In this document: in pieces, positions 376-22,345 of the stretch
Layout: every line of letters begins with the position of its first letter
Numbering within the stretch: position 1 is the stretch's first letter
From: an uncultured Thermoanaerobacteraceae bacterium
Lineage (GTDB): Bacteria > Bacillota > JADQBR01
Assembly (NCBI GenBank): GCA_964529795.1
Contig: CAZGXM010000002.1
Span: 1-24,000 of the forward strand
Reading direction: 5' to 3'
DNA: 24,000 nt
Position numbers and translations under genes: made by a program
The notes under the pieces: model-generated
Seen by the model: the letters and a program-made list of their open reading frames with translations, nothing else
The model's database searches: none
What the model was told of the DNA's origin: nothing

Positions 376-1965
376 GTGGAAACTTGGCGTTTGCTTGATA
401 CGGGGATAAAAACTGCAGCAGAAAATATGGCATTAGATGAAGTGGTCTTAACCGCTAAAGGGAAGGGCTGGACACCTAATACGCTTAGGTTTCTGCAGTT
501 TAGTCCTCCTTGTGTCTTGGTTGGCTATCATCAAAGTATTGAGCAGGAGATTCGCATTGATTACTGCAGGGACAATGGTATAGATATCAATCGTCGTATT
601 ACCGGCGGCGGGGGATTGTACTGGGATGAAACCCAGCTTGGCTGGGAGATATTTGCTGATAAGAATCATCCTGCCATTCCCAATAAAATAGAGGAGTTGT
701 ATGAAAAGCTCAGCAATGCAGTAATTTTTGCATTGGGTGAGTTTGGCCTAAAGGCCAAGTTTAGGTACAGGAATGACATTGAAATAAACCACCGGAAAAT
801 TTCAGGTACCGGGGGGACTGAATTAGATAATGCGTTTTTATTTCAAGGGACTCTCCTGGTGGATTTTGATGTGGATACAATGTTAAGGGCATTAAGGATA
901 CCTACGGAAAAACTAAAGGATAAGGAAATAGAGTCGGTAAAAGAGCGGGTTACCTGTTTGAAATGGGAATTGGGCTATACCCCGGCCATTGAGGATATTA
1001 AGACGGCTATCGTAAAAGGATTCTCCCACGAGTTGGGAGTTAAATTCACTGAAGGGGTCTTATCCCAGAAAGAGGAAAAGCTGTTAGTTGAGACTATACC
1101 GAAATTTAAATCAGTAAAATGGGTGGATAATATACGCCGGTCGCCGCTGCAGCGTCAGGAGTTAAAGTCTCTTTATAAAAATGAAGGCGGCCTCATCAGG
1201 ACATCTGTCATTTTAGACGGCTATACAGAAAGAATCCTGACTATTTTAATTACCGGTGATTTTTTTGTTTACCCGAAAAACGCCATCTTTGATTTGGAAA
1301 ATTTACTGCGAGACGTCCCGGCTGATTTTAATCAAATACTCAGCATAATTAGTAGGTTTTTTGGAGAAAAACAGGTCAAGATTCCGGGCCTTACCCCGAA
1401 AGATTTTACCATTGCCATATGGGATGCTGTTAAAAAGAAGGATTTACTGGACCACGGAATTGGCTTAAAGGATATTAACTCAGTTTATATGGTGGGGGGA
1501 GATTTTGAGCAGGTGGAAAACGCCACGGTGCTGCTTCTTCCCTACTGCGCCAAAAAAGTGAGCTGTAAATATCGCTTTTGGGAAGGATGTGTACAGTGCG
1601 GAGGTTGTACCATCGGGCCGGCTTTTAAACTGGCGCTGGATTATGGGCTGCAGCCCGTTACCATTCAGAATTATGAAATGCTGGAAGAAACCCTTAAGGA
1701 CCTTCAGAAAAGGGGAGTTCAGTCCTTTGTCGGGACGTGCTGTGAAGCGTTTTATGCCAAACATAAGGATGATTTTGAACGTATCGGCCTGCCGGGGGTG
1801 CTGGTGGATGTAAAAAACTCTACCTGTTACGACCTGGGCAAGGAAAAAGAAGCCAAAGAAGGCATGTTTGAAAATCAGACCGAGTTAAAGTTGGACTTAC
1901 TTAAACAAATTGTTGATTTAAAAGCAAGCCGGGTAAATAGTTCCATGGTTGGTGGTAATCAATGA
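376..1965 (+). CDS. lplA: Lipoate-protein ligase (LplA catalytic and C-terminal domains) fused to a C-terminal Cys-rich DUF116-like domain
   Basis: GTG start 10 nt after GGAGG (361-365). Residues 1-250 show ligase motifs: ENMALDE, RRITGGGGLYWD and the catalytic Lys in HRKISGTGG (K141). Residues 255-350 resemble the LplA C-terminal domain (ITGDFFVYP). Residues 384-490 carry LLLPYCAKKVSC...CVQCGGC...GTCCE...NSTC, the DUF116 pattern as I remember it. Confidence 0.85.
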   Translation: METWRLLDTGIKTAAENMALDEVVLTAKGKGWTPNTLRFLQFSPPCVLVGYHQSIEQEIRIDYCRDNGIDINRRITGGGGLYWDETQLGWEIFADKNHPAIPNKIEELYEKLSNAVIFALGEFGLKAKFRYRNDIEINHRKISGTGGTELDNAFLFQGTLLVDFDVDTMLRALRIPTEKLKDKEIESVKERVTCLKWELGYTPAIEDIKTAIVKGFSHELGVKFTEGVLSQKEEKLLVETIPKFKSVKWVDNIRRSPLQRQELKSLYKNEGGLIRTSVILDGYTERILTILITGDFFVYPKNAIFDLENLLRDVPADFNQILSIISRFFGEKQVKIPGLTPKDFTIAIWDAVKKKDLLDHGIGLKDINSVYMVGGDFEQVENATVLLLPYCAKKVSCKYRFWEGCVQCGGCTIGPAFKLALDYGLQPVTIQNYEMLEETLKDLQKRGVQSFVGTCCEAFYAKHKDDFERIGLPGVLVDVKNSTCYDLGKEKEAKEGMFENQTELKLDLLKQIVDLKASRVNSSMVGGNQ

Positions 1966-3035
1966 GAGCGGATATTAGAGAGTACGATGCGGTTATCATC
2001 GGTGCAGGTCCTGCAGGGGCGGCAGCGGCGAAAGAGTTGGCGGGCAGCGGGTTTTCCGCGGCTCTTTTGGAGAAAAGAAGACAAATCGGCATACCGGTCA
2101 GATGTGCCGAGTTTGTCCCCCGTTTTTTAAACAGTTACTATGATATACCGCCTTTTGTCATTGCCCAACAGATTAACCATATGGAGACACATTTGCCGGA
2201 TAAAAGCAAAGAAGTGACCCCTGCTCCCGGTTATGTTGTGCACCGGGTGCTGTTTGATAAATATTTGGTTGCCCAGGCGGTTGAAGCGGGCGCCGTGCTG
2301 TATTTAGGCACTAAAGCGGTGAAAATCCATAATAATGAAGTGGTTGCTGTGCAAGGTGACAGTAACATAGTCTTTCATACAAAAATAATTGTCGGCGCCG
2401 ATGGCCCCAATTCTATGCTTAGAAAGGTTGTGGGGATTAAGAAACCGCCCATGGCCCGTGCTCTCCAGGCTGAGGTAGTACTGGAAAGGGAGCAATCAAC
2501 TACTCAAATAGTGTTTCACCCCAGCATTTACGGGGGTTATGCCTGGTTTTTCCCCAAAGGCAAGACTGCCAATGTAGGTTTGGGCATGATTAACCAGGGA
2601 GGAGACTCGGTGAAAAAAGCCTGGCAGAGGTTATTTAGCCTTTTTAATATTGAGTCCACTATCGGTTATACAGGCGGGCAAGTTCCTGTTGGCGGTACGG
2701 TAAAACAGCTGGTAAAAGATAATATGCTGTTGGCAGGTGACGCCGCAGGACTGACTCATCCTATTACCGGTGCCGGTATCAGTAATGCGGTGATTAGCGG
2801 TAAGATGGCCGGTGCAGCGGCTGCCGATGCCCTGTCTTCGGGAGATTATACTTACCTAAGCAATTATGAGGAAGATATTGAAGACCTTTTCGGTAATAGT
2901 TTAAGGCTAGCCGCGGCAAATAGAAAATACCAGGAAGAAAATTGGAGTGATGATCCGGAAGTCCTCAGCGGTGTGATTAAAAAGACATGGGTTGCCTTTC
3001 AAGAATATGGTGCAAATAAACAGGGGGGAGTTTAA
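1962..3035 (+). CDS. lipT: FAD-dependent oxidoreductase, geranylgeranyl reductase family (LipT-like electron donor of the LipS pathway)
   Basis: ATGA start/stop overlap with the ligase gene (1962-1965). It has the N-terminal dinucleotide fold YDAVIIGAGPAGAAAAKELA and the GDAAG motif (LLAGDAAGLTHPITGAGI). It lies between a lipoate ligase and two radical SAM genes. Confidence 0.8.
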   Translation: MRADIREYDAVIIGAGPAGAAAAKELAGSGFSAALLEKRRQIGIPVRCAEFVPRFLNSYYDIPPFVIAQQINHMETHLPDKSKEVTPAPGYVVHRVLFDKYLVAQAVEAGAVLYLGTKAVKIHNNEVVAVQGDSNIVFHTKIIVGADGPNSMLRKVVGIKKPPMARALQAEVVLEREQSTTQIVFHPSIYGGYAWFFPKGKTANVGLGMINQGGDSVKKAWQRLFSLFNIESTIGYTGGQVPVGGTVKQLVKDNMLLAGDAAGLTHPITGAGISNAVISGKMAGAAAADALSSGDYTYLSNYEEDIEDLFGNSLRLAAANRKYQEENWSDDPEVLSGVIKKTWVAFQEYGANKQGGV

Positions 3036-3036
3036 A

Positions 3037-4095
3037 TTGAATAATTTAGCAGCCAAAACAACGGATAATCAAAATATGGAAAGTCCTGATTATGCCCAAA
3101 CCAGTCTGGCAGCAAGTCTGACTTTGGGATTCGAGAGGGGATTGTTTCACCGCAACGCGACTCTAAAAGGTCTTAATCTCTTGGTAACCTACAATAACAA
3201 GTGTGCCGGGAACTGCAGTTACTGCGGCTTATCGAGAACCAGGGACCTCACTGAAAGTGAAACATTTATTCGTGTCAGTTGGCCTACTTATGCTGTGGAT
3301 GACATGATTCATGCTGTAAAGGAAAAGCAGCATGAACTGCAGCGTGTATGTGTAGGCATGATAACCCATAAAAAAGCTGTGGCGGACAGCATTGCCATCA
3401 TCAAACGATTTAAAAAAGAGACCGATTTATTAATTAGTGCGCTGGTCTCTCCCACTGTCATGAAAAGGGGGGACCTAAGCCGGATAAAAGAAGCGGGAGC
3501 TGATATGTGCGGAATTGCCGTTGATGCGGCTACTGAAGAATTATTTGATAAATTTCGGGGCCGGTCGGTGTCCGGTCCCCATCGCTGGTCAGCGTTCTGG
3601 GATGCCGTAGAAGAGGCGGCGGCCGTGTTTGGGCGGTATAAAGCAGGAGTACATTTAATTGTAGGATTAGGGGAAACCGAAAAGGAAATGGTAGATACGA
3701 TACAAAGGGCCCATGACTTAGGAGCCATAACACATTTATTCAGCTTTTTTCCTGAAGCGGGGAGTAAAATGGAGAACTGGCCCCAACCTGATTTGGGCCA
3801 CTATCGGCGTATCCAATTGGCCAGATATGTAATTAATAATAACTTAGGTACAGCAGCGGAGATACAGTTTAACGGCGACGGGCAGTTAACTGATTTCGGG
3901 CAGGATTTGGATAAGTTTTTTGCGGACGGGGAAGCATTTATGACTTCAGGCTGCGCAGGAAAAGACGATAAAGTAGCCTGCAACCGACCTTTCGGTAACG
4001 AGCGTCCTTCAAAGCCTATTAGAAACTTTCCCTTTATGCCAACGCCTCAGGATTTAAAATTAATAAGAAAACAATTATGGCAGGGTCTAAAATGA
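3037..4095 (+). CDS. Radical SAM protein, biotin-synthase-like, LipS1/LipS2-type lipoyl synthase component
   Basis: CxxxCxxC motif CAGNCSYC. I prefer a TTG start at 3037, 6 nt after GGGGGAG and 1 nt after the upstream stop. The track ORF starts at 2992 and would overlap lipT by 44 nt; ATG 3007 is another option. I cannot tell LipS1 from LipS2 by eye. Confidence 0.75.
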   Translation: MNNLAAKTTDNQNMESPDYAQTSLAASLTLGFERGLFHRNATLKGLNLLVTYNNKCAGNCSYCGLSRTRDLTESETFIRVSWPTYAVDDMIHAVKEKQHELQRVCVGMITHKKAVADSIAIIKRFKKETDLLISALVSPTVMKRGDLSRIKEAGADMCGIAVDAATEELFDKFRGRSVSGPHRWSAFWDAVEEAAAVFGRYKAGVHLIVGLGETEKEMVDTIQRAHDLGAITHLFSFFPEAGSKMENWPQPDLGHYRRIQLARYVINNNLGTAAEIQFNGDGQLTDFGQDLDKFFADGEAFMTSGCAGKDDKVACNRPFGNERPSKPIRNFPFMPTPQDLKLIRKQLWQGLK

Positions 4096-5078
4096 GTGCA
4101 ACTGAGAGGGCGGTTACACGAGATATAATAAAAGATGCCTATCAAAATTCTTTGAATCACCTGCTGGAAGAGGCGTGGCAGGTCAGGACGGAATACCATG
4201 ATAATACCTTGGCTTTTGCGGCACCCAGTCCCAAGTTTTATGAAACTGATGATTATAAAAATAACAGGACGGCATTTATTAATGTTTCCGTTACAGGGAC
4301 TAAATGTGCACTGCGCTGCGAACATTGTAAGGGTGAACTGTTAAAATCCATGCATTCAGCAACTGATTCTAAAGAGTTAGTCAGTTTAGGTGAAAGATTC
4401 CTTAAAAAAGGCTGCCAAGGTGTCTTGATCAGCGGGGGAGCCGATGCTAACGGTGAAGTCCCGCTTAAAAACATGGCGGCAGGTATAAAACAACTAAAGC
4501 AGCTGGGTTTGAAAGTAATCGTGCATACAGGGTTGATTACAGAGGAAACGGCACTTATCTTAAAAGAATGTGGAGTGGATCAGGTTTTAACTGATGTAAT
4601 TGGGGATAGGCAGACTGCTAAAGAAGTGTATCATTTGGACAAAACCCCGGAACAGTTTGGAAATGCTTTGAAGATAATGGGTGACGCCGGTTTAAATATT
4701 GCACCTCACATTGTTATTGGACTGGATTATGGCCGTATTGTGGGTGAATTGGAGGCGTTATACCAGGTGATAAGGGCCGATGCCCCGGCAATTGTCTTTG
4801 TAATATTAAATCCATTACCCGATACCCCCATGTTTGGTGTAAAGAGTGCTCCGGCGGATAAAATTGGGAAAATAATTGCTTTAGCCCGTATCTTCAGTCC
4901 CAAAGCAAAAATAATGTTGGGATGTGCCAAACCGCCTAAAGATAAGATAGCCATTGAAACATTGGCACTGAATGCCGGTGTTAACGCAATCGCCTATCCT
5001 GCAGAAGAGACTGTATCTTTAGCCAAAGATAAGGGCTTGAAAACATTTTTTAGTCCTTTATGCTGCAGCTTGCTTTAA
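4092..5078 (+). CDS. Radical SAM protein, second LipS1/LipS2-type lipoyl synthase component
   Basis: CxxxCxxC motif CALRCEHC, followed by VLISGG. ATG 4092 forms an ATGA overlap with the upstream stop (4093-4095). ATG 4077 from the track is the alternative start. Confidence 0.75.
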   Translation: MSATERAVTRDIIKDAYQNSLNHLLEEAWQVRTEYHDNTLAFAAPSPKFYETDDYKNNRTAFINVSVTGTKCALRCEHCKGELLKSMHSATDSKELVSLGERFLKKGCQGVLISGGADANGEVPLKNMAAGIKQLKQLGLKVIVHTGLITEETALILKECGVDQVLTDVIGDRQTAKEVYHLDKTPEQFGNALKIMGDAGLNIAPHIVIGLDYGRIVGELEALYQVIRADAPAIVFVILNPLPDTPMFGVKSAPADKIGKIIALARIFSPKAKIMLGCAKPPKDKIAIETLALNAGVNAIAYPAEETVSLAKDKGLKTFFSPLCCSLL

Positions 5079-5749
5079 AACTTATGGCGCTGCTTCTTCT
5101 CAGGGCCAATGGGGTTATATGTGATGTTGACCCGCTGTTTGTAATTGACTTGAAAAACCCCGAAAATCCAAATATTTTGGGCAAGTTAAAAATCCCCGGT
5201 TATTCGGATTACCTCCATCCTTATGACAACAATCACATTATTGGTTTCGGAAAGGATACCGTCGAGGCTAAGGAGGGGGACTTTGCCTGGTATCAAGGGC
5301 TGAAAATTGCCATCTTTGATGTTATCGATGTAAACAACCCCAAGGAATTGTTTAAAGAAATTATCGGTGACCGCGGTACCGATTCTGAAATTCTGCGTAA
5401 TCACAAGGCACTGTTATTTGACAGGGAAAAAGGACTTTTAAGTTTTCCTGTTACGGTCATGAGGGTAAAAGAAAAAGGCCCGAATAATGCTTTCCGGTAT
5501 GGAGAGTTTTCTTTCCAGGGTGCCTACGTGTACCATGTTGACCTGGATAACGGTTTTTCCCTGAAAAAGAAAATTACCCATCTCACTGACGAGGATTATC
5601 TTAAGGCGGGCAGCTACTGGCACGCTCCGGGCAAAAGTATTGAAAGAATTCTTTATATCGGTGATAGACTCTACACCCTGTCAAAGGGTAAAATAAAAGT
5701 GTATGACCTGAATACGCTGGATGAAATCAAGAGCATTTCACTTCCATGA
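5060..5749 (+). pseudogene. 5'-truncated beta-propeller domain protein (only the C-terminal ~215 aa of a protein that is normally several hundred aa)
   Basis: VDPLFVIDLKNPENPNILGKLKIPGYSDYLHPYDNNHIIGFGKDT matches the C-terminal part of the secreted Beta_propel family. The frame opens only at 5054, just after an in-frame TAG. There is no signal peptide or N-terminal region, and the 5' end overlaps the 3' end of the preceding radical SAM gene. Confidence 0.6.
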
Positions 5750-5782: not shown

Positions 5783-6562
5783 ATGAGTGAGGTTTTGCTT
5801 GTCGAAAAGCGGGATGCAGTTACTTATCTTACCTTGAACCGGCCGGAAAAATACAATGCTTTAGATCTTGAAATAACTGAAAAACTGTCATTGGCAGTTA
5901 AGGATTGTTTTGAGGATGATACAAGAGTCGTGGTAATCAGAGGTTCAGGAAAGGCATTTTGTTCCGGCGGCGACCTTTCCTACATGGTTTCACAACAATC
6001 AATTAAAGAAGCTTTGGGAAAACTTATCCAACTGCTGCACCGCCTGATGACTGACATTCGCCTGCTGCCGAAACCAGTGATAGCGGCAATTAACGGTACT
6101 GCGGCGGGAGCCGGGATGAGTCTGGCCTTGGCAGCCGATTTACGGATTGCTTCGGACAGGGCTAAATTTAAACAGGCGTATACCAGTAACGGGTTGGTTC
6201 CTGATGGGGGTTGGAGCTTGTGGGTGCCGGCGATCGTGGGCCTTTCCAAAGCCAGCGAACTGATTCTTTTGGACGAAGTGTTCGACGCCCGGCGCGCGCA
6301 TGAACTTGGTTTGGTCAATATGGTAGCTGCCGATAGCGATTTTTCGCTAAAGGTCGATGAAACCGCAAGGATGTTGGCAAAAGGGGCTACCAAAGCCTAC
6401 GGGGCGGCCAAAGCTTTACTAAACCAGTCGGCTTTACCCATGTTGGAGACACAGCTTGAGAAGGAACGCCAGGCGATGATAGCTATTGGGAGCACAAGGG
6501 ATGCAAAAGAAGGCATCAATGCTTTTCTGGAAAAAAGACTGCCCGAGTTTTGCGGTGAATAA
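5783..6562 (+). CDS. Enoyl-CoA hydratase/isomerase (crotonase) family protein
   Basis: RBS AAGGGGGG lies upstream. Crotonase motifs are present: LTLNRPEKYNAL, GSGKAFCSGGDL and INGTAAGAGMSLALAADLRIA. Confidence 0.85.
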   Translation: MSEVLLVEKRDAVTYLTLNRPEKYNALDLEITEKLSLAVKDCFEDDTRVVVIRGSGKAFCSGGDLSYMVSQQSIKEALGKLIQLLHRLMTDIRLLPKPVIAAINGTAAGAGMSLALAADLRIASDRAKFKQAYTSNGLVPDGGWSLWVPAIVGLSKASELILLDEVFDARRAHELGLVNMVAADSDFSLKVDETARMLAKGATKAYGAAKALLNQSALPMLETQLEKERQAMIAIGSTRDAKEGINAFLEKRLPEFCGE

Positions 6563-6693: not shown

Positions 6694-7326
6694 TCAGCAG
6701 CTGTCCCGTATTTTTGCGATGGGTCCTTCAGGATCGATTACATTTACCAGCAGCTGGTAGGGTACGGGGAACTGCGGCGGGCCCACAAAGTGGGGTGTAA
6801 ATACCAGTTCCTGAAAAAAGACAACTAAATCTTTATCAGTCAGGTAGAATTCCTGATTGTCGGTGATAGGCGGAACTTCATCGAAAGTGGGAATGTCTTT
6901 TTCCTCGATTTGTTCTTTGACAAAATTTTTGATTATGAGTCTGTAATCAGTACCTGCTTTAAACAGGTCATGAAACTCATATTGTTTGGCGTTGCTTAAA
7001 TTTACTGTTAAAGCTTTTAAGACCGTCGTCCCGTTGGCTGCCTTAAAAGGTATCAAAAATACTTCAATCGTCAAGCTTAAAATACCCTTGTCATTGAAAG
7101 TAATTTCATATCTTCCCGTAACTTTCACGGAACATCCATCCACGTCGGTAATATCTTGAGGTATTTGATTGAACACAACCTTTTCAATCATTTGGTTAAG
7201 CTTATTTTTCACTTTTTCATCAAAGCTTGGATAGATATCTTCAACTTGCGGGTAAATGAAATCGATACAGGGGGTTTCTATCTTTTTTTCAGTGATGCGT
7301 GCAAAAAAACGCTTCCGGCTGTACAT
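6694..7326 (-). CDS. DUF4163/DUF3298 (RsiV/PdaC-like) domain protein
   Basis: RBS GGGAGGG lies upstream on the minus strand. The pattern IYPQV...KVKNKLNQMI, then GRYEITFNDKGILSL...TVNLSNAKQYEFHDLF, fits the DUF4163 plus DUF3298 architecture. Confidence 0.6.
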   Translation of the reverse strand: MYSRKRFFARITEKKIETPCIDFIYPQVEDIYPSFDEKVKNKLNQMIEKVVFNQIPQDITDVDGCSVKVTGRYEITFNDKGILSLTIEVFLIPFKAANGTTVLKALTVNLSNAKQYEFHDLFKAGTDYRLIIKNFVKEQIEEKDIPTFDEVPPITDNQEFYLTDKDLVVFFQELVFTPHFVGPPQFPVPYQLLVNVIDPEGPIAKIRDSC

Positions 7327-7515
7327 TTAAAATTAACCCTCCCACTTAGGTTCTCTAATCTATGTTATTCATTTGCAAGACAAAATGTTTGTAATTTTGC
7401 ACTGCAGATTTAAAAAATCAGTGCCTCAGCGGGTAGGATATACGTTATTTGGGAAAGAAATATAGTTTTACGCTGAAAATCACTGTTCGAAAATTGTCTT
7501 TCAGGAGGTGTAAAA

Positions 7516-7926
7516 ATGACCGATCGACTGGTTGAAACCGGTATCAAGCGCATGGAAAAAGATGCTCTGGCCCGGTATTTGGGGATTGAACTGGAAGAAA
7601 TCAAGCCCGGTTGTGCACGGGCCACCATGAAAGTTAAACATGAGCTGTTAAATGGTGCCGGCGTTACACACGGCGGGGCAATATTCAGCCTGGCTGATGT
7701 GGCTTTTGCTGCTGCCAGCAATGCTCACGGACCGGTGGCACTGGCGTTAAACGTTAATATCAGCTTTTTAAAGGCCACTTTTTTGGAAGAAACCCTGACG
7801 GCTGAAGCCAAGGAAGAAAACCTCACGGCCAAAACCGGGGTTTATCGTATTGAAGTGAGAAATGACAGCGGGGAACTGGTGGCAGTGGCGGAGGGGTTGG
7901 TATACAGGAAGAACCGACACTTGTAG
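7516..7926 (+). CDS. PaaI-family hotdog-fold acyl-CoA thioesterase
   Basis: RBS AGGAGG precedes the start. LGIELEEIKPGCARATMKV...NGAGVTHGGAIFSLADVAFAAA is the typical PaaI/4HBT signature. Confidence 0.8.
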   Translation: MTDRLVETGIKRMEKDALARYLGIELEEIKPGCARATMKVKHELLNGAGVTHGGAIFSLADVAFAAASNAHGPVALALNVNISFLKATFLEETLTAEAKEENLTAKTGVYRIEVRNDSGELVAVAEGLVYRKNRHL

Positions 7927-7982
7927 TAAGAAGGAAAAAGTGTTTAAATATAGATAGATGACACGTGAGAAGGAGCAACTCT

Positions 7983-15981: not shown

Positions 15982-16701
15982 ATGAAATTGGCAGTATTTG
16001 CTGATGTTCACAGTAACATTGAGGCATTGAGAGCTGTGTTAAAAGATATCAAAGAACAGGATGTTGAACGTATTTTTTGCACCGGTGACCTGGTTGGTTA
16101 TGCACCGTTTCCCAACGAAGTAATTGATTTGATTAGGAAAGAAAACATTCTCACCGTGATGGGGAATTACGATGACGGTGTGGGGAATATGCGTATAATC
16201 TGCGGCTGTGATTATAAGGATGAGCATGCCCAGCGGTTAGGTGCGCAGTCAATTGCCTGGACAAAAAGTGAAACTACAGAGGAAAATAAGGAGTTTTTAC
16301 GCCAACTGCCGGAAAAGATTCGCTTTAATACTGACAGCTACAGGGGTTTAATTGTTCACGGCAGTCCAAAACGGCTTAATGAGTACCTCTATGAGAATGC
16401 CACGGGGGAATACCTGCTTCAGCTTTTAGAAGAGTATGAAGCCGACATTTTGGTATGCGGCCACACGCACAAACCGTACTTCAAGAAACTGAAAGATAAC
16501 AAATTTGTTATCAATGTAGGTAGTGTGGGAAAACCCAAGCACGGCAATCCCAACGCGGTTTATGCATTGATTGATGTTACAGATACTGTATCAGTGGAGT
16601 TCATCGAAGTACCCTATGACTACGAGTCTACTGCCAGGGCCATTGAGGTCAGCAGTTTGCCTGACGAGTTTGCGGAGTTAATAAGGGAAGGGATGGGATA
16701 A
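15982..16701 (+). CDS. Metallophosphoesterase (YfcE/MJ0936-like calcineurin-fold phosphoesterase), last gene of the ars operon
   Basis: Motifs FADVHSN, TGDLVGY, MGNYD and CGHTH are present. There is no terminator in the 46-nt gap after acr3. It contains a CGC motif (RIICGCDY). Confidence 0.75.
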   Translation: MKLAVFADVHSNIEALRAVLKDIKEQDVERIFCTGDLVGYAPFPNEVIDLIRKENILTVMGNYDDGVGNMRIICGCDYKDEHAQRLGAQSIAWTKSETTEENKEFLRQLPEKIRFNTDSYRGLIVHGSPKRLNEYLYENATGEYLLQLLEEYEADILVCGHTHKPYFKKLKDNKFVINVGSVGKPKHGNPNAVYALIDVTDTVSVEFIEVPYDYESTARAIEVSSLPDEFAELIREGMG

Positions 16702-16958: not shown

Positions 16959-17078
16959 CTCTTATCGAGAGTGGTCGAGGGACAGGCCCGATGAAACCAC
17001 GGCAACCTGCAAGGCTTGCAAGGTGCCAATTCCTGTCAGATGAGAGCAGGACTATACTCCTCATCTGAGGAGTTTTTT
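16959..17078 (+). promoter_or_regulatory. SAM-I (S-box) riboswitch with antiterminator and terminator
   Basis: P1 is CTCTTATC (16959-16966) paired with GATGAGAG (17039-17046). Conserved core: GAGAGTGGTCGAGGGACAGGCCCGATGAAACCACGGCAACC...GGTGCCAATTCC. Antiterminator: CAGATGAG (17037-17044) with CTCATCTG (17060-17067). Terminator: ACTCCTC (17056-17062) with GAGGAGT (17067-17073), followed by T-run 17073-17078 (TTTTTT). Confidence 0.9.
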
Positions 17079-17113: not shown

Positions 17114-18253
17114 ATGAGATTCGAAACCAGATGTGTGCAGTCGGGCGTGTGCAAGTCAGAAACAACGGGGAGTATCAGTACGCCTATTTACCAGACGGCG
17201 ACCTTCAGGCACCCCGGTTTGGGGAAGAGTACCGGTTTTGATTACTCCCGGACGGGTAATCCTACCCGGCAGGTGCTGGAAAAGGCCATAGCCGGGCTGG
17301 AAGGGGGCAGTTGCGGTTTGGCCTTTTCCTCGGGCATGGCGGCGATCAGCGCTGTGCTGCACTTATTTAAGGCCGGCGACCATCTGATTGTTTCCGATGA
17401 TTTATACGGTGGTACTTATCGTTTGCTGGAACAGGTGTACAATAACTTTGGGCTGGAGGTCAGTTATGTGGATACCAGCGATTTAACACGGGTTGAGCGG
17501 GCGATCACTGCCAGTACCAGGGCTATTTTAATTGAAACACCCACAAATCCTTTAATGAAAGTTACTGATATCAGTGCCGTATCAAATTTGGCCCGACAAC
17601 ATCAATTGCTGCTGATTGTGGACAATACGTTTATGACTCCTTACTGGCAGCAGCCGCTGACACTGGGGGCGGATATAGCGGTCCACAGCGCCACGAAATA
17701 CCTGGGTGGGCACAATGACCTGGTGGCGGGCCTGCTGGTGGTGAAAAATAAGGACCTGGGAGAAAAATTATATTTTATCCAAAATTCCATTGGGGCGATA
17801 CTGGGGCCGCAGGACTCCTGGCTACTGCTGCGGGGGCTGAAGACCCTGGCGGTACGTCTGGAGAAAGGACAGCAAAATGCCCTGAATATTGCCCGGTGGT
17901 TAAAAGCGCACTCGCAGGTAACCAGGGTATATTACCCAGGCTTGACGGACCATCCCGGTTATCAGATAATGAAAAAGAACAGTACCGGCTTTGGGACAAT
18001 GATCTCCTTTGAAGTATCACAGCCGTTTTTGGTGGAGCAGGTTTTGAGCAAACTACAGATGATTGCCTTTGCGGAAAGTTTGGGCGGTGTGGAAACCCTG
18101 ATTACCTTTCCCGCAGAACAAACTCATGCGGATATACCCGAAGAAGTGCGGGAAAGTTTGGGCATAAATAACCGGCTGTTAAGGCTTTCCGTGGGCATTG
18201 AACACGTGGACGACTTAATCAGTGATTTTGCCCAGGCATTAACTCCAGACTAG
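17114..18253 (+). CDS. metI: Cys/Met-metabolism PLP enzyme, cystathionine gamma-synthase-like (MetI-like)
   Basis: RBS GGGGGGAAAG precedes the start. It is collinear with B. subtilis MetI as I recall it: GFDYSRTGNPTR, AFSSGMAAI, DNTFMTPY, the PLP Lys in HSATKYLGGHND, and AESLGGVE. Confidence 0.75.
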   Translation: MRFETRCVQSGVCKSETTGSISTPIYQTATFRHPGLGKSTGFDYSRTGNPTRQVLEKAIAGLEGGSCGLAFSSGMAAISAVLHLFKAGDHLIVSDDLYGGTYRLLEQVYNNFGLEVSYVDTSDLTRVERAITASTRAILIETPTNPLMKVTDISAVSNLARQHQLLLIVDNTFMTPYWQQPLTLGADIAVHSATKYLGGHNDLVAGLLVVKNKDLGEKLYFIQNSIGAILGPQDSWLLLRGLKTLAVRLEKGQQNALNIARWLKAHSQVTRVYYPGLTDHPGYQIMKKNSTGFGTMISFEVSQPFLVEQVLSKLQMIAFAESLGGVETLITFPAEQTHADIPEEVRESLGINNRLLRLSVGIEHVDDLISDFAQALTPD

Positions 18254-18310
18254 CTTTCAATCATCATCTGAACTTCAAATTTCTAAATTTTAGCACGGGG
18301 AGGAAAGCTA

Positions 18311-19456
18311 ATGAAATTCGGCACCAGGGTTTTGCATACCGGCACGGAAGTTGACTCGGCCACCGGTGCGGTAAGCGTACCCATCTATCATTCTTCCACT
18401 TACGATCAGAGAGGTGATGTGAAGAAAGAGTTTGACTATTCCCGCTCTGGCAATCCCACCAGAAAAGCGGTGGAAGGGGCGCTTGCAGTGCTGGAAGATG
18501 GTGCCCGGGGTTTTACTTTCGCCTCGGGTATGGCAGCCATCAGTACAGTGCTGGCGTTATTTTCCGCGGGCGACCATCTGCTGATAACAAGAGATGTTTA
18601 CGGCGGCACTTACCGGGTACTGACCAAGGTATTTTCCCGGTTTGGCATTGAATTTGACTTTATCGATACTATTGATCTGAGCAATATCCGTAAGCAGGTC
18701 AGGCCGAACACTAGGGGATTGTACCTGGAGTCACCTTCCAACCCGTTGTTGAAAATAACTGATATCAAGGGAGCTTGTGAGATTGCCAAAGAGCACGGGC
18801 TAATAACCATGGCAGATAATACCTTTATGACACCGTATTTTCAAAATCCGCTGCAACTGGGTGCGGATATCGTCATTCACAGTGCCACCAAATTTTTAGG
18901 TGGTCACAGTGACCTGCTGGCGGGGGTGGTTGTAGCCAGTGATAAGAAATTATGTCAGGAGATAGCGCAACTGCAAAATGCGATCGGAGCGGTTCTTGAC
19001 CCTCATTCTTGCTGGCTGCTGATGCGGGGAATAAAAACACTGAAAGTACGTATGGAGCAGCACCAGCAGGGGGCTTTGAAAATTGCCGAGTGGTTAAAGG
19101 ACCACCCCTTGATTGACAGAGTTTACTATCCAGGTCTGCCGGAGCACCCGGGACATGAGACGGTGAAACAGCAGTGCCGGGGTTTTGGCGGTGTTTTATC
19201 GTTTGTTACCAAGGACGAGACGGTTACCAAGAGGTTAATGCAGGAAGTCAAAGTTCCCGTTGTGGCTGTGAGCTTGGGCGCGGTGGAAAGCATTCTTTCC
19301 TATCCCGCTGCCATGTCCCATGCGGCCATACCTTTAGAAGAGAGGCTGCAGTTAGGGATTTCGGATAACCTGTTACGGTTGTCTGTGGGCCTGGAAGAAC
19401 CGGAAGATTTGATTGCGGACCTGGAACAGGTTTTGGGCCAAAATAACGGGTGCTAA
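18311..19456 (+). CDS. metC: Cys/Met-metabolism PLP enzyme, cystathionine beta-lyase-like (MetC-like), paralog of the upstream gene
   Basis: RBS GGGGAGGAAAG precedes the start. It has the same family motifs (FDYSRSGNPTR, HSATKFLGGHSD, AVSLGAVES). It is the second gene of the S-box operon, as in the B. subtilis metIC arrangement. Confidence 0.7.
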   Translation: MKFGTRVLHTGTEVDSATGAVSVPIYHSSTYDQRGDVKKEFDYSRSGNPTRKAVEGALAVLEDGARGFTFASGMAAISTVLALFSAGDHLLITRDVYGGTYRVLTKVFSRFGIEFDFIDTIDLSNIRKQVRPNTRGLYLESPSNPLLKITDIKGACEIAKEHGLITMADNTFMTPYFQNPLQLGADIVIHSATKFLGGHSDLLAGVVVASDKKLCQEIAQLQNAIGAVLDPHSCWLLMRGIKTLKVRMEQHQQGALKIAEWLKDHPLIDRVYYPGLPEHPGHETVKQQCRGFGGVLSFVTKDETVTKRLMQEVKVPVVAVSLGAVESILSYPAAMSHAAIPLEERLQLGISDNLLRLSVGLEEPEDLIADLEQVLGQNNGC

Positions 19457-21950: not shown

Positions 21951-21980
21951 AGCTTAAAATAGCTTTTATCAAATACCATG

Positions 21981-22228
21981 AACAGGAAAAGTAGACTTGG
22001 TTGGGAACCCAGAGCGAGCCGGGGACGGTGAAAGCCCGGCGGGGAACGCTAGGTTGAAGTTCTCCTGGGAGTTGCAAGCTGAATACCTCAAGGTTAGTAG
22101 GCGAGACGGGACTTCCGCCGTTACAAGGAAGAGGGTATAAGGACTTGCTCCCGTACCTCAGACTGAAACTCTCCCTGTAGGGTGGTTTTGCGAGTAACTC
22201 TCGTCCCTAAGACGGGAGTTTTTGTTTT
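21981..22228 (+). promoter_or_regulatory. T-box riboswitch (complete: Stem I, F-box, Stem III, antiterminator/terminator), probable Phe (UUC) specifier
   Basis: Stem I has AGTA (21990-21993), the AG bulge AGAGCGA (22011-22017) and the distal loop GGTGAAAG. The 3' side of the specifier loop is GAAGTTC, with TTC at 22060-22062. F-box CCGTTA is at 22117-22122. T-box: AGGGTGGTTTTGCGAG (22179-22194). Terminator: ACTCTCGTC (22197-22205) with GACGGGAGT (22211-22219), then TTTTGTTTT. Confidence 0.8.
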
Positions 22229-22239
22229 AGTTGGGAAAG

Positions 22240-22345
22240 TCCCGTACCTGTAAGGAGTGGGTCGTTAACTGACCAAACAGGGTGGTACCGCGGAAGCGCC
22301 ACAGATTCGTCCCTGGTGATGAAACTGTGGCGCTATTAATTTTTA
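22240..22345 (+). promoter_or_regulatory. Second T-box antiterminator/terminator module with no recognisable Stem I of its own
   Basis: Canonical T-box AAACAGGGTGGTACCGCGG (22275-22293), with CGTCCCT (22308-22314) closing the antiterminator. Terminator: GCGCCACAG (22296-22304) with CTGTGGCGC (22325-22333), then TATTAATTTTT. TCCCGTACCT (22240-22249) repeats 22149-22158. Confidence 0.65.

Follow-up and report, generated by a model that had tools for sequence, protein, structure and literature searches.

The sLpl(AB)/LplAB-LipT-LipS1/LipS2 pathway of lipoate assembly (Tanabe et al., 2023; PMC10332631) belongs to a route to lipoic acid that was established only in 2020-2023. LipS1 and LipS2 each contain a radical S-adenosylmethionine (SAM) cluster and an auxiliary [4Fe-4S] cluster (Neti et al., 2022; PMC9585515), and the auxiliary clusters serve as the sulfur source (PMC9585515). 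The LipS1/LipS2 assays used dithionite or a surrogate ferredoxin system, and physiological reductant supported only ~1 to 1.5 turnovers (PMC9585515); LipT has been proposed as the electron source (PMC10332631). Here we report on an operon of this kind in a 24,000-nucleotide (nt) stretch of DNA from an uncultured Thermoanaerobacteraceae bacterium (assembly GCA_964529795.1, contig CAZGXM010000002.1, positions 1 to 24,000 of the forward strand; hereafter the window), in which the ligase gene continues into a Cys-rich domain of the DUF116 family (domain of unknown function; PF01976).

DUF116 proteins (arCOG02078, COG1852; for instance MMP0162 of Methanococcus maripaludis) have been described as two N-terminal transmembrane helices followed by a Cys-rich domain that is probably flavodoxin-like (PMC5898192). 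Canonical members neighbor genes for sulfite/nitrite reductases or ArsA-like ATPases, a fusion to a polyprenyl synthetase has also been found, and a metal-binding, electron-transfer role was predicted for DUF116 from gene contexts (Makarova et al., 2015; PMC5898192). One DUF116 gene lies beside those for IspH, the radical-SAM protein HpnH and a polyprenyl synthetase (bioRxiv 10.1101/2025.11.21.689855). The ligase fusion is absent from both Makarova et al. (2015) and the 2025 preprint, and no paper linking DUF116 to LipS1/LipS2-type lipoate synthesis was found in the literature searched. An initial annotation of the window, made from the sequence alone, had held that a role for LipS1/LipS2 would give DUF116 its first functional context, a claim that the electron-transfer role predicted earlier from other contexts (PMC5898192) forestalls. 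Two points are new with respect to the literature searched: a DUF116 subfamily is tightly and widely linked to LipS1/LipS2-type lipoate synthesis, and there is evidence for the domain as a pathway component in its own right, autonomous and under selection; the pathway of the operon and the Pfam family of the domain were already known, and the window gene is one of many database members that have gone unremarked.

Like the pathway of Tanabe et al. (2023), the window encodes the same four functions in one tight operon, and the predicted chemistry is also the same: free octanoate would be ligated, after which sulfur would be inserted at C8 and C6. Unlike the ligases of that pathway, the window ligase bears an extra DUF116 domain of 170 amino acids (aa) with eight Cys, and such a fusion is mentioned in neither the text nor 13 supplements of PMC10332631. 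A precedent for joining a ligase to a downstream assembly step is the LplA-LipA fusion of NCBIfam NF053790 (bifunctional lipoate-protein ligase/lipoyl synthase), whose ligase half aligns with the window protein over profile positions 36-321 of 606 (119 bits); here the fusion partner is DUF116 instead of LipA, and the sulfur-insertion enzymes stay separate genes.

The ligase-DUF116 fusion gene and its operon

The fusion gene (376..1965, + strand) is a single open reading frame (ORF) of 529 aa plus stop, with a GTG start preceded by a GGAGG-type ribosome-binding site and with zero internal stops. Its LplA catalytic domain (376..1140, + strand; aa 1-255) matches Pfam LplA-B_cat (PF21948; aa 14-216, E = 2.9e-50, 171.5 bits) and, by Foldseek, LplA of Thermoplasma acidophilum (3r07_A; target-normalised template-modelling (TM) score 0.87, 29% identity). 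The catalytic-lysine motif R140-K141-ISGTGG is present, and K141, which we take to be the equivalent of E. coli K133, is invariant in 120 homologues. The LplB accessory domain (1141..1431, + strand; aa 256-352) is identified by NCBIfam LplB (aa 267-351, 53.4 bits, under the cut-off of 65), by a PDB profile match to 3r07_C (E = 1.5e-11) and by Foldseek (3r07_C, TM score 0.91, 37% identity). The window protein scores 157.7 bits against TIGR00545 (lipoate-protein ligase), short of the equivalog cut-off of 280; because the ligase, LipS1 and LipS2 all fall under their NCBIfam equivalog cut-offs, they represent a divergent branch, and the activity of the ligase is a predicted one.

In an AlphaFold2 (AF2) model of the full-length protein (mean predicted local distance difference test (pLDDT) score 88.7), a long helix (aa 341-360) leaves LplB and leads into strand 1 of the C-terminal domain. 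The connecting segment delimited by AF2 secondary structure and conservation (1432..1527, + strand; aa 353-384) varies more than any other part of the protein, with a mean top-residue frequency of 0.54. Foldseek searches with the full-length model found no solved ligase that reaches into the C-terminal domain.

This domain is a significant match to PF01976 (aa 376-486, E = 3.5e-11, 43.3 bits for the whole protein, with the gathering cut-off at 25), and the C-terminal 180 residues alone score 46.4 bits. The conserved core (1528..1890, + strand; aa 385-505), delimited by the PF01976 match, Cys conservation and the AF2 domain model, contains the motifs LLLPYCAK, C-x2-C-G-x-C-x2-G, G-x-CCE-x-F-x2-KH-x2-DFE and TCYD. 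Its eight Cys (residues 391, 397, 405, 408, 411, 455, 456 and 484; codons at nt 1546, 1564, 1588, 1597, 1606, 1738, 1741 and 1825) fall within 94 residues, compared with three in the first 390 residues of the protein; the binomial chance of such a density is 8e-7 for one segment of this length and ~3e-4 after correction for all segments. The initial annotation had described positions 1486-1965 as an extra, Cys-rich and DUF116-like C-terminal domain and had quoted the strings LLLPYCAKKVSCKYRFWEGCVQCGGCTIGP, FVGTCCEAFY and VKNSTCYD. All three occur in the translation, the positions, which are accurate, correspond to aa 371-529, within which the conserved core is narrower, and the Pfam match bears out the family.

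As in other PF01976 proteins, compared here through their description in the literature, the motif C405-x2-C408-x2-C411 is accompanied by further Cys, five in this case, in agreement with the definition of arCOG02078 by at least six conserved Cys including C-x2-C-x2-C. The two transmembrane helices of the family are missing: the match starts at profile position 32 of 155, after LplB and a soluble helix, and stand-alone relatives of 164-189 aa have no hydrophobic N-terminus either. The window subtype thus differs from canonical DUF116 proteins in having a ligase where they have the transmembrane segment and in occurring only in lipoate clusters. Against PF01976, relatives reach 37.7, 47.5 and 50.1 bits, and the modest scores (43-50 bits) mark the window-type subfamily as divergent. 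The best explanation of these matches is that the gene encodes a working lipoate/octanoate-protein ligase, as predicted from its motifs, joined to a soluble DUF116 member without the usual transmembrane segment.

The DUF116 core is as constrained as the active-site domain of the ligase. Among 120 full-length homologues, the mean top-residue frequency is 0.78 in the core, 0.77 in the catalytic domain and 0.68 in LplB, and the Cys of the domain are invariant or at least 90% conserved across alignments of 93 and 120 sequences.

The ligase gene is followed by three adjoining genes on the same strand, with overlapping stops and starts. The first (1962..3035, + strand), whose start overlaps the ligase stop (ATGA), encodes a LipT-like flavin adenine dinucleotide (FAD) flavoprotein of the geranylgeranyl-reductase (GGR) family, with Pfam FAD-binding domains, GGR_cat and a TIGR02032 score of 214.5 bits, over the cut-off of 158.8. 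The next, lipS2 (2992..4095, + strand), has NF053743 as its best match (237 bits, under the cut-off of 270) and a CAGNCSYC motif; its true start is probably the ATG at 3076 (MESPDY...). The last, lipS1 (4077..5078, + strand), has NF053742 as its best match (204 bits, under the cut-off of 230), a CALRCEHC motif and a C-terminal CC pair, and an alternative ATG at 4092 overlaps the lipS2 stop (ATGA). Both LipS proteins match these models far better than any other, cover them end to end and contain a CX3CX2C motif.

Distribution of the fusion and its gene context

An exhaustive phmmer search with the whole window protein retrieved 7864 relatives, of which the best 150 representatives of 50%-identity clusters were compared. 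The fusion extends from the N-terminus to past residue 500 in 68 of the 150, at 64% to 29% identity, and 35 are complete ligases that end where DUF116 would start; LplA-LplB-DUF116 is, judging from these alignments, the commonest architecture among the closest relatives of the window ligase. The fusion had been called unusual in the initial annotation, which this count of 68 fused versus 35 unfused representatives rules out, and it is already annotated in databases, where several of the proteins are named "DUF116 domain-containing protein" or "lipoyl protein ligase domain-containing protein". To the best of our knowledge, the characterized proteobacterial and Thermococcus ligases are without DUF116. 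At 90% identity, ~120 clusters of 500-577 aa, nearly all with PF21948 and PF01976, are found among the matches listed; they include Candidatus Formimonas warabiya (64% identity), Desulfitobacterium, Anaerolineae, Thermoflexales and Deltaproteobacteria. At least 64 species-level genomes have the fusion, and they come from the phyla Chloroflexota, Thermodesulfobacteriota, Bacillota and Thermoplasmatota.

Two genes, one for a ligase and one for DUF116, could have been merged by a frameshift in sequencing or assembly, and split and stand-alone versions do exist (L002/L052 and Sporomusa, respectively). We give this explanation next to no credence. The reading frame is continuous, a 364-aa fragment on an independent JGI metagenome contig differs from the window protein by one residue, the three domains share one frame in 64 genomes, and hundreds of homologues, among them end-to-end ones down to 29% identity, have the same continuous architecture. 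The fusion is genuine, ancient and widespread.

Other domain combinations were also found among the relatives. A 1117-aa protein (P0118) consists of an LplAB in tandem with an LplAB-DUF116 and a CdhB/acetyl-CoA synthase (ACS)-epsilon (CO_dh) domain, and in a 630-aa protein (P0202) LplAB is joined to an alpha/beta-hydrolase in place of DUF116, possibly an octanoate-freeing thioesterase.

The gene context was surveyed by a domain-motif scan of one genome per GTDB species, from which the best 80 of 119 genomes were taken and their loci searched by tblastn with six window domains and proteins. The LplA catalytic domain, LplB and DUF116 share one frame at 64 of the 73 loci that extend far enough upstream. 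Within 6 kb of DUF116, all three of LipT, LipS2 and LipS1 are encoded at 58 of the 61 loci with enough flank, and LipT and LipS2 both at 60 of the 61. By script, LipT is the next gene downstream at 58 of 71 loci, to which two (L074, L075) can be added where LipT overlaps the end of DUF116; at L079 and L036, from which LipT seemed to be missing, a LipT homologue lies immediately downstream. The domain is thus usually encoded directly upstream of lipT and translationally coupled to it, and LplAB-LipT-LipS2-LipS1 clusters are essentially the only place where this DUF116 subtype occurs. The sole locus without lipoate genes, from Methanomassiliicoccales (L004/L070, 6786-7017), is uninformative because a run of N lies directly upstream of the domain; on that chromosome (CP070739), the "partial" DUF116 gene of NCBI is cut by an assembly gap or mask. 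Variants of the gene order include a split form in which LplA is followed by a separate LplB-DUF116 (L002/L052), and loci of Thermoplasmatota in which LipS2 is upstream and the gene downstream, for a GGR-like flavoprotein, is convergent. A tblastn search of plasmid records with the DUF116 domain gave no match. The co-occurrence of DUF116 with lipoate genes, which the initial annotation had seen at one locus, therefore extends to LipT, LipS2 and LipS1 almost without exception, which places this DUF116 subtype in lipoyl-cofactor assembly.

Sporomusaceae loci with a dead or deleted ligase carrier

Seven Sporomusaceae loci have the gene order LplAB (without DUF116)-LipT-LipS2-LipS1, with DUF116 in the last gene. 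At four of them (L064, L067, L071 and L084), DUF116 is joined to a second ligase paralogue that has lost the catalytic lysine (K141), the RKISGTGG motif having become GRELCWLGG or GRQIGWFSG, and at a fifth (L062) the DUF116 reading frame excludes the neighboring match to the ligase catalytic domain; the last gene after lipS1 lies at ~6950-8540 in these five loci. In Sporomusa silvacetica (L083) and strain KB1 (L068), the ligase part is gone, and a stand-alone DUF116 protein of ~190 aa (189 aa in L083) is encoded after lipS1 at ~7860-8540. All eight Cys and their flanking motifs are intact in every case. Because the Cys are all kept where the ligase carrier is dead or deleted, the domain itself is under selection. 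The second ligase paralogue fused to DUF116 is, to judge from its altered motif, a natural pseudo-enzyme scaffold; selection preserves the DUF116 module and not the ligase carrier, and the module can act in trans.

In S. silvacetica (L083:130-8441) and at L001 (3916-11696), the lipoate genes are preceded by a conserved trio that encodes a GcvH-like protein, a GlcD-like FAD oxidase (FAD_binding_4/FAD-oxidase_C) and a protein with Fer4_8 and CCG domains; Sporomusa has a second GcvH. The trio suggests a lipoyl-protein-dependent oxidoreductase system that is served by the operon.

Predicted fold and ligands of the DUF116 domain

The AF2 model of the domain alone (pLDDT 90, predicted TM score 0.85) alternates strands and helices in an alpha/beta fold, possibly a flavodoxin-like one such as has been predicted for PF01976 proteins (PMC5898192). 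C391 follows directly on strand 2, C397, C405, C408 and C411 are in the next loop, C455 and C456 come right after strand 4, and C484 follows strand 5. Based on this model, the Cys would share one edge of a parallel alpha/beta sheet, where such folds bind cofactors. Foldseek searches with the domain gave a best E of 0.012 and TM scores of at most 0.38, all of them generic flavodoxin-like matches, and Pfam/NCBIfam matches at E <= 10 are noise, such as PrpR_N, DeoD and FdhD. The ferredoxin motif C-x2-C-x2-C-x3-C-P is absent: C411-T-I-G is followed by P415, with no fourth Cys there.

Eight Cys would suffice for two Zn(Cys)4 sites, and the domain could accordingly be imagined as a zinc (Zn) scaffold, a docking platform for the ligase, LipT, LipS2, LipS1 and the acceptor protein. 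The long helix between LplB and the domain, which in the model suggests a rigid attachment, and the lack of a detected iron-sulfur (Fe-S) family signature are both consistent with such a scaffold. The persistence of the free-standing 189-aa form at the end of the operon argues against it, as do the positions of C-x2-C-x2-C and the CC pair, where strands end in a putatively flavodoxin-like fold, which are more typical of cluster sites, and the redox enzymes that make up the other contexts of DUF116 (PMC5898192). We regard a scaffold of this kind as distinctly unlikely.

The domain could also be an enzyme or a sensor, either a redox switch on the ligase or a catalyst of HdrB-like thiol/disulfide chemistry on the nascent dithiol. 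Many charged and polar residues besides the Cys are invariant, the CC-containing pattern loosely recalls CCG, and CCG proteins adjoin GcvH genes in some clusters. Homology to CCG (HdrB/GlcF type, PF02754) was nevertheless rejected, since profile-profile comparison by hhalign with four CCG proteins returned a probability of 0.6% and there was no Pfam match to that family; the CCG order C-Xn-CC-Xn-C-x2-C is reversed in the window domain. That the domain is kept even where there is no ligase, or a dead one, contradicts a regulation of the ligase. We estimate a catalytic or sensor role to be slightly less probable still than a Zn scaffold, and both are less likely than an electron relay or the regeneration of clusters.

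A candidate electron relay between LipT and LipS2/LipS1

Electron delivery, sulfur delivery and cluster repair, all put forward in the initial annotation, are candidate roles of DUF116. The reading that we favor, tentatively, is that DUF116 is an Fe-S one-electron relay between LipT and the radical-SAM clusters of LipS2 and LipS1. The eight Cys would bind one or two Fe-S clusters at one edge of a putative flavodoxin-like sheet, and electrons would pass from NAD(P)H to the FAD of LipT, to the Fe-S cluster(s) of DUF116 and then to the radical-SAM [4Fe-4S] clusters of LipS2 and LipS1, so that DUF116 would be the missing low-potential one-electron carrier of the pathway. Tethering would put the reductant where the octanoylated protein is handed over to LipS2/LipS1, whether the tether is a ligase or a catalytically dead scaffold, in which docking of the lipoyl-domain substrate may persist.

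Flavodoxin or ferredoxin is the usual one-electron donor of other radical-SAM enzymes, and the Fpr/flavodoxin of E. coli is a flavoprotein-carrier pair that feeds such enzymes. In the window, the Cys-rich domain precedes the genes of two radical-SAM enzymes, which must be reduced by one electron. A partner Fe-S protein encoded alongside is often required by GGR-family flavoproteins (PMC10821996), and, as with the GGR of Methanosarcina acetivorans and its adjacent ferredoxin (PMC10821996), a GGR-family FAD protein here adjoins a small Cys-rich alpha/beta domain. Unlike the carriers of such flavoprotein/ferredoxin-flavodoxin pairs, to which the domain has no sequence or profile similarity, the proposed carrier is tethered to a ligase and not free. 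The independent prediction of electron transfer for DUF116 (PMC5898192) and the DUF116 gene beside those for IspH and HpnH (bioRxiv 10.1101/2025.11.21.689855) also favor a relay.

The main rival explanation is that DUF116 supplies clusters or sulfur: an Fe-S cluster of DUF116 would rebuild the auxiliary [4Fe-4S] clusters of LipS1/LipS2 at each turnover, with the ligase, functional or dead, as a targeting module. Since the auxiliary clusters are consumed as the sulfur source and only ~1-1.5 turnovers take place with physiological reductant (PMC9585515), a regeneration factor is needed, and a Cys-rich domain with a strict link to LipS2/LipS1 would be well placed to be one. In E. coli, NfuA/IscU regenerate the auxiliary cluster of LipA. 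As with NfuA/IscU and LipA, a Cys-rich pathway module here goes together with a radical-SAM enzyme that sacrifices its own cluster to insert sulfur, and the dead ligase joined to DUF116 in Sporomusa resembles NfuA, in which a degenerate targeting domain is joined to a cluster domain. DUF116 is nevertheless not homologous to NfuA/IscU or similar to Nfu, A-type or U-type carriers, has eight Cys per domain instead of a CxxC pair, and is encoded next to a flavoprotein. Known carriers have labile clusters bound by two or three Cys, often at dimer interfaces, whereas the domain described here is compact, with eight invariant Cys that look like ligands of stably bound clusters, and its near-universal neighbor, lipT, better fits a coupling to redox chemistry. 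We therefore consider cluster or sulfur supply rather unlikely, and the electron relay remains our preferred reading.

Several observations weigh against an electron relay. The metal/redox character of DUF116 proteins is itself a prediction; no related solved structure was found by sequence profile or Foldseek, and no Fer4, flavodoxin, Nfu or other Fe-S carrier family was matched in Pfam/NCBIfam even at E <= 10. The many conserved polar residues (Y390, K393, R400, E434 and K462 invariant; E457, H463, D466 and E468 at >= 90%) hint at more than a simple electron carrier. An 825-aa protein (P0153) in which LplAB, DUF116 and LipT form one chain is a singleton and may be an indel artefact, and when its junction region was used as a query, none of the matches spanned both the DUF116 and the LipT halves; P0115 is frameshift junk, and there is thus no fusion-based evidence for a contact between LipT and DUF116. 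Finally, the 35 of the 150 best LplAB relatives that end before DUF116 do without the domain, and the published proteobacterial LipT clusters, to our knowledge, also work without it, so DUF116 is not indispensable to LipT or LipS chemistry.

A wider claim, which we hold still more tentatively than the relay, is that DUF116 represents an unrecognized class of Fe-S redox (or cluster-donor) domain, the lipoate branch of which lets LipS1/LipS2 turn over with LipT. If this is true, DUF116 could be the one-electron partner of GGR-family flavoproteins together with radical-SAM or Fe-S enzymes, and the polyprenyl-synthetase fusion and the IspH/HpnH neighborhood of DUF116 would be explained as well. 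An eight-Cys domain that is tied to LipS genes is a candidate for the reductant of the radical-SAM clusters or for the rebuilder of the auxiliary clusters in vivo. A 25-year-old domain of unknown function also gains a defined assay, with LipT, DUF116 and LipS1/S2 acting on an octanoyl peptide, for which the stand-alone Sporomusa protein (189 aa) and the natural dead-ligase fusions are ready experimental handles.

Other features of the window

The 375-nt stretch before the ligase ORF is non-coding, with stops in all six frames, and its part from 124 to 375 is the operon leader, which matches no Rfam family. A strong terminator-like hairpin with a 13-bp stem on the minus strand (152-124), within the leader, closes whatever gene lies upstream.

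Downstream, a 229-aa ORF (5060-5749) that overlaps the end of lipS1 matches only positions 326-495 of the 495 of Beta_propel and looks like a truncated gene remnant. Just 3' of the lipoate operon are genes for an enoyl-CoA hydratase (5783-6562) and a 4HBT-type thioesterase (7516-7926), the latter of which could in principle be the source of the free octanoate used by the ligase. They are followed by a gene for a 347-aa protein (7965-9008) with a CdhD-like region (CO dehydrogenase/acetyl-CoA synthase delta subunit) and then several hydrophobic segments, and by a 2-oxoacid:ferredoxin oxidoreductase pair (9429-12127).

Genes for a radical-SAM/SPASM protein, an ArsR-family regulator, an SBF-family (ACR3-like) transporter and a metallophosphoesterase (13192-16701) may form an arsenic- or metalloid-related cluster. 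A SAM riboswitch (16959-17046) lies 5' of genes for two pyridoxal-phosphate-dependent enzymes of Cys/Met metabolism (17114-19456), and a T-box leader (21969-22317) lies 5' of a gene for 3-deoxy-D-arabino-heptulosonate-7-phosphate synthase, whose listed GTG start at 22282 falls inside the T-box, so that the true start is probably later. The SAM riboswitch and the T-box are in keeping with an affinity to Bacillota, to which the best protein match, that to Ca. Formimonas warabiya, also points.

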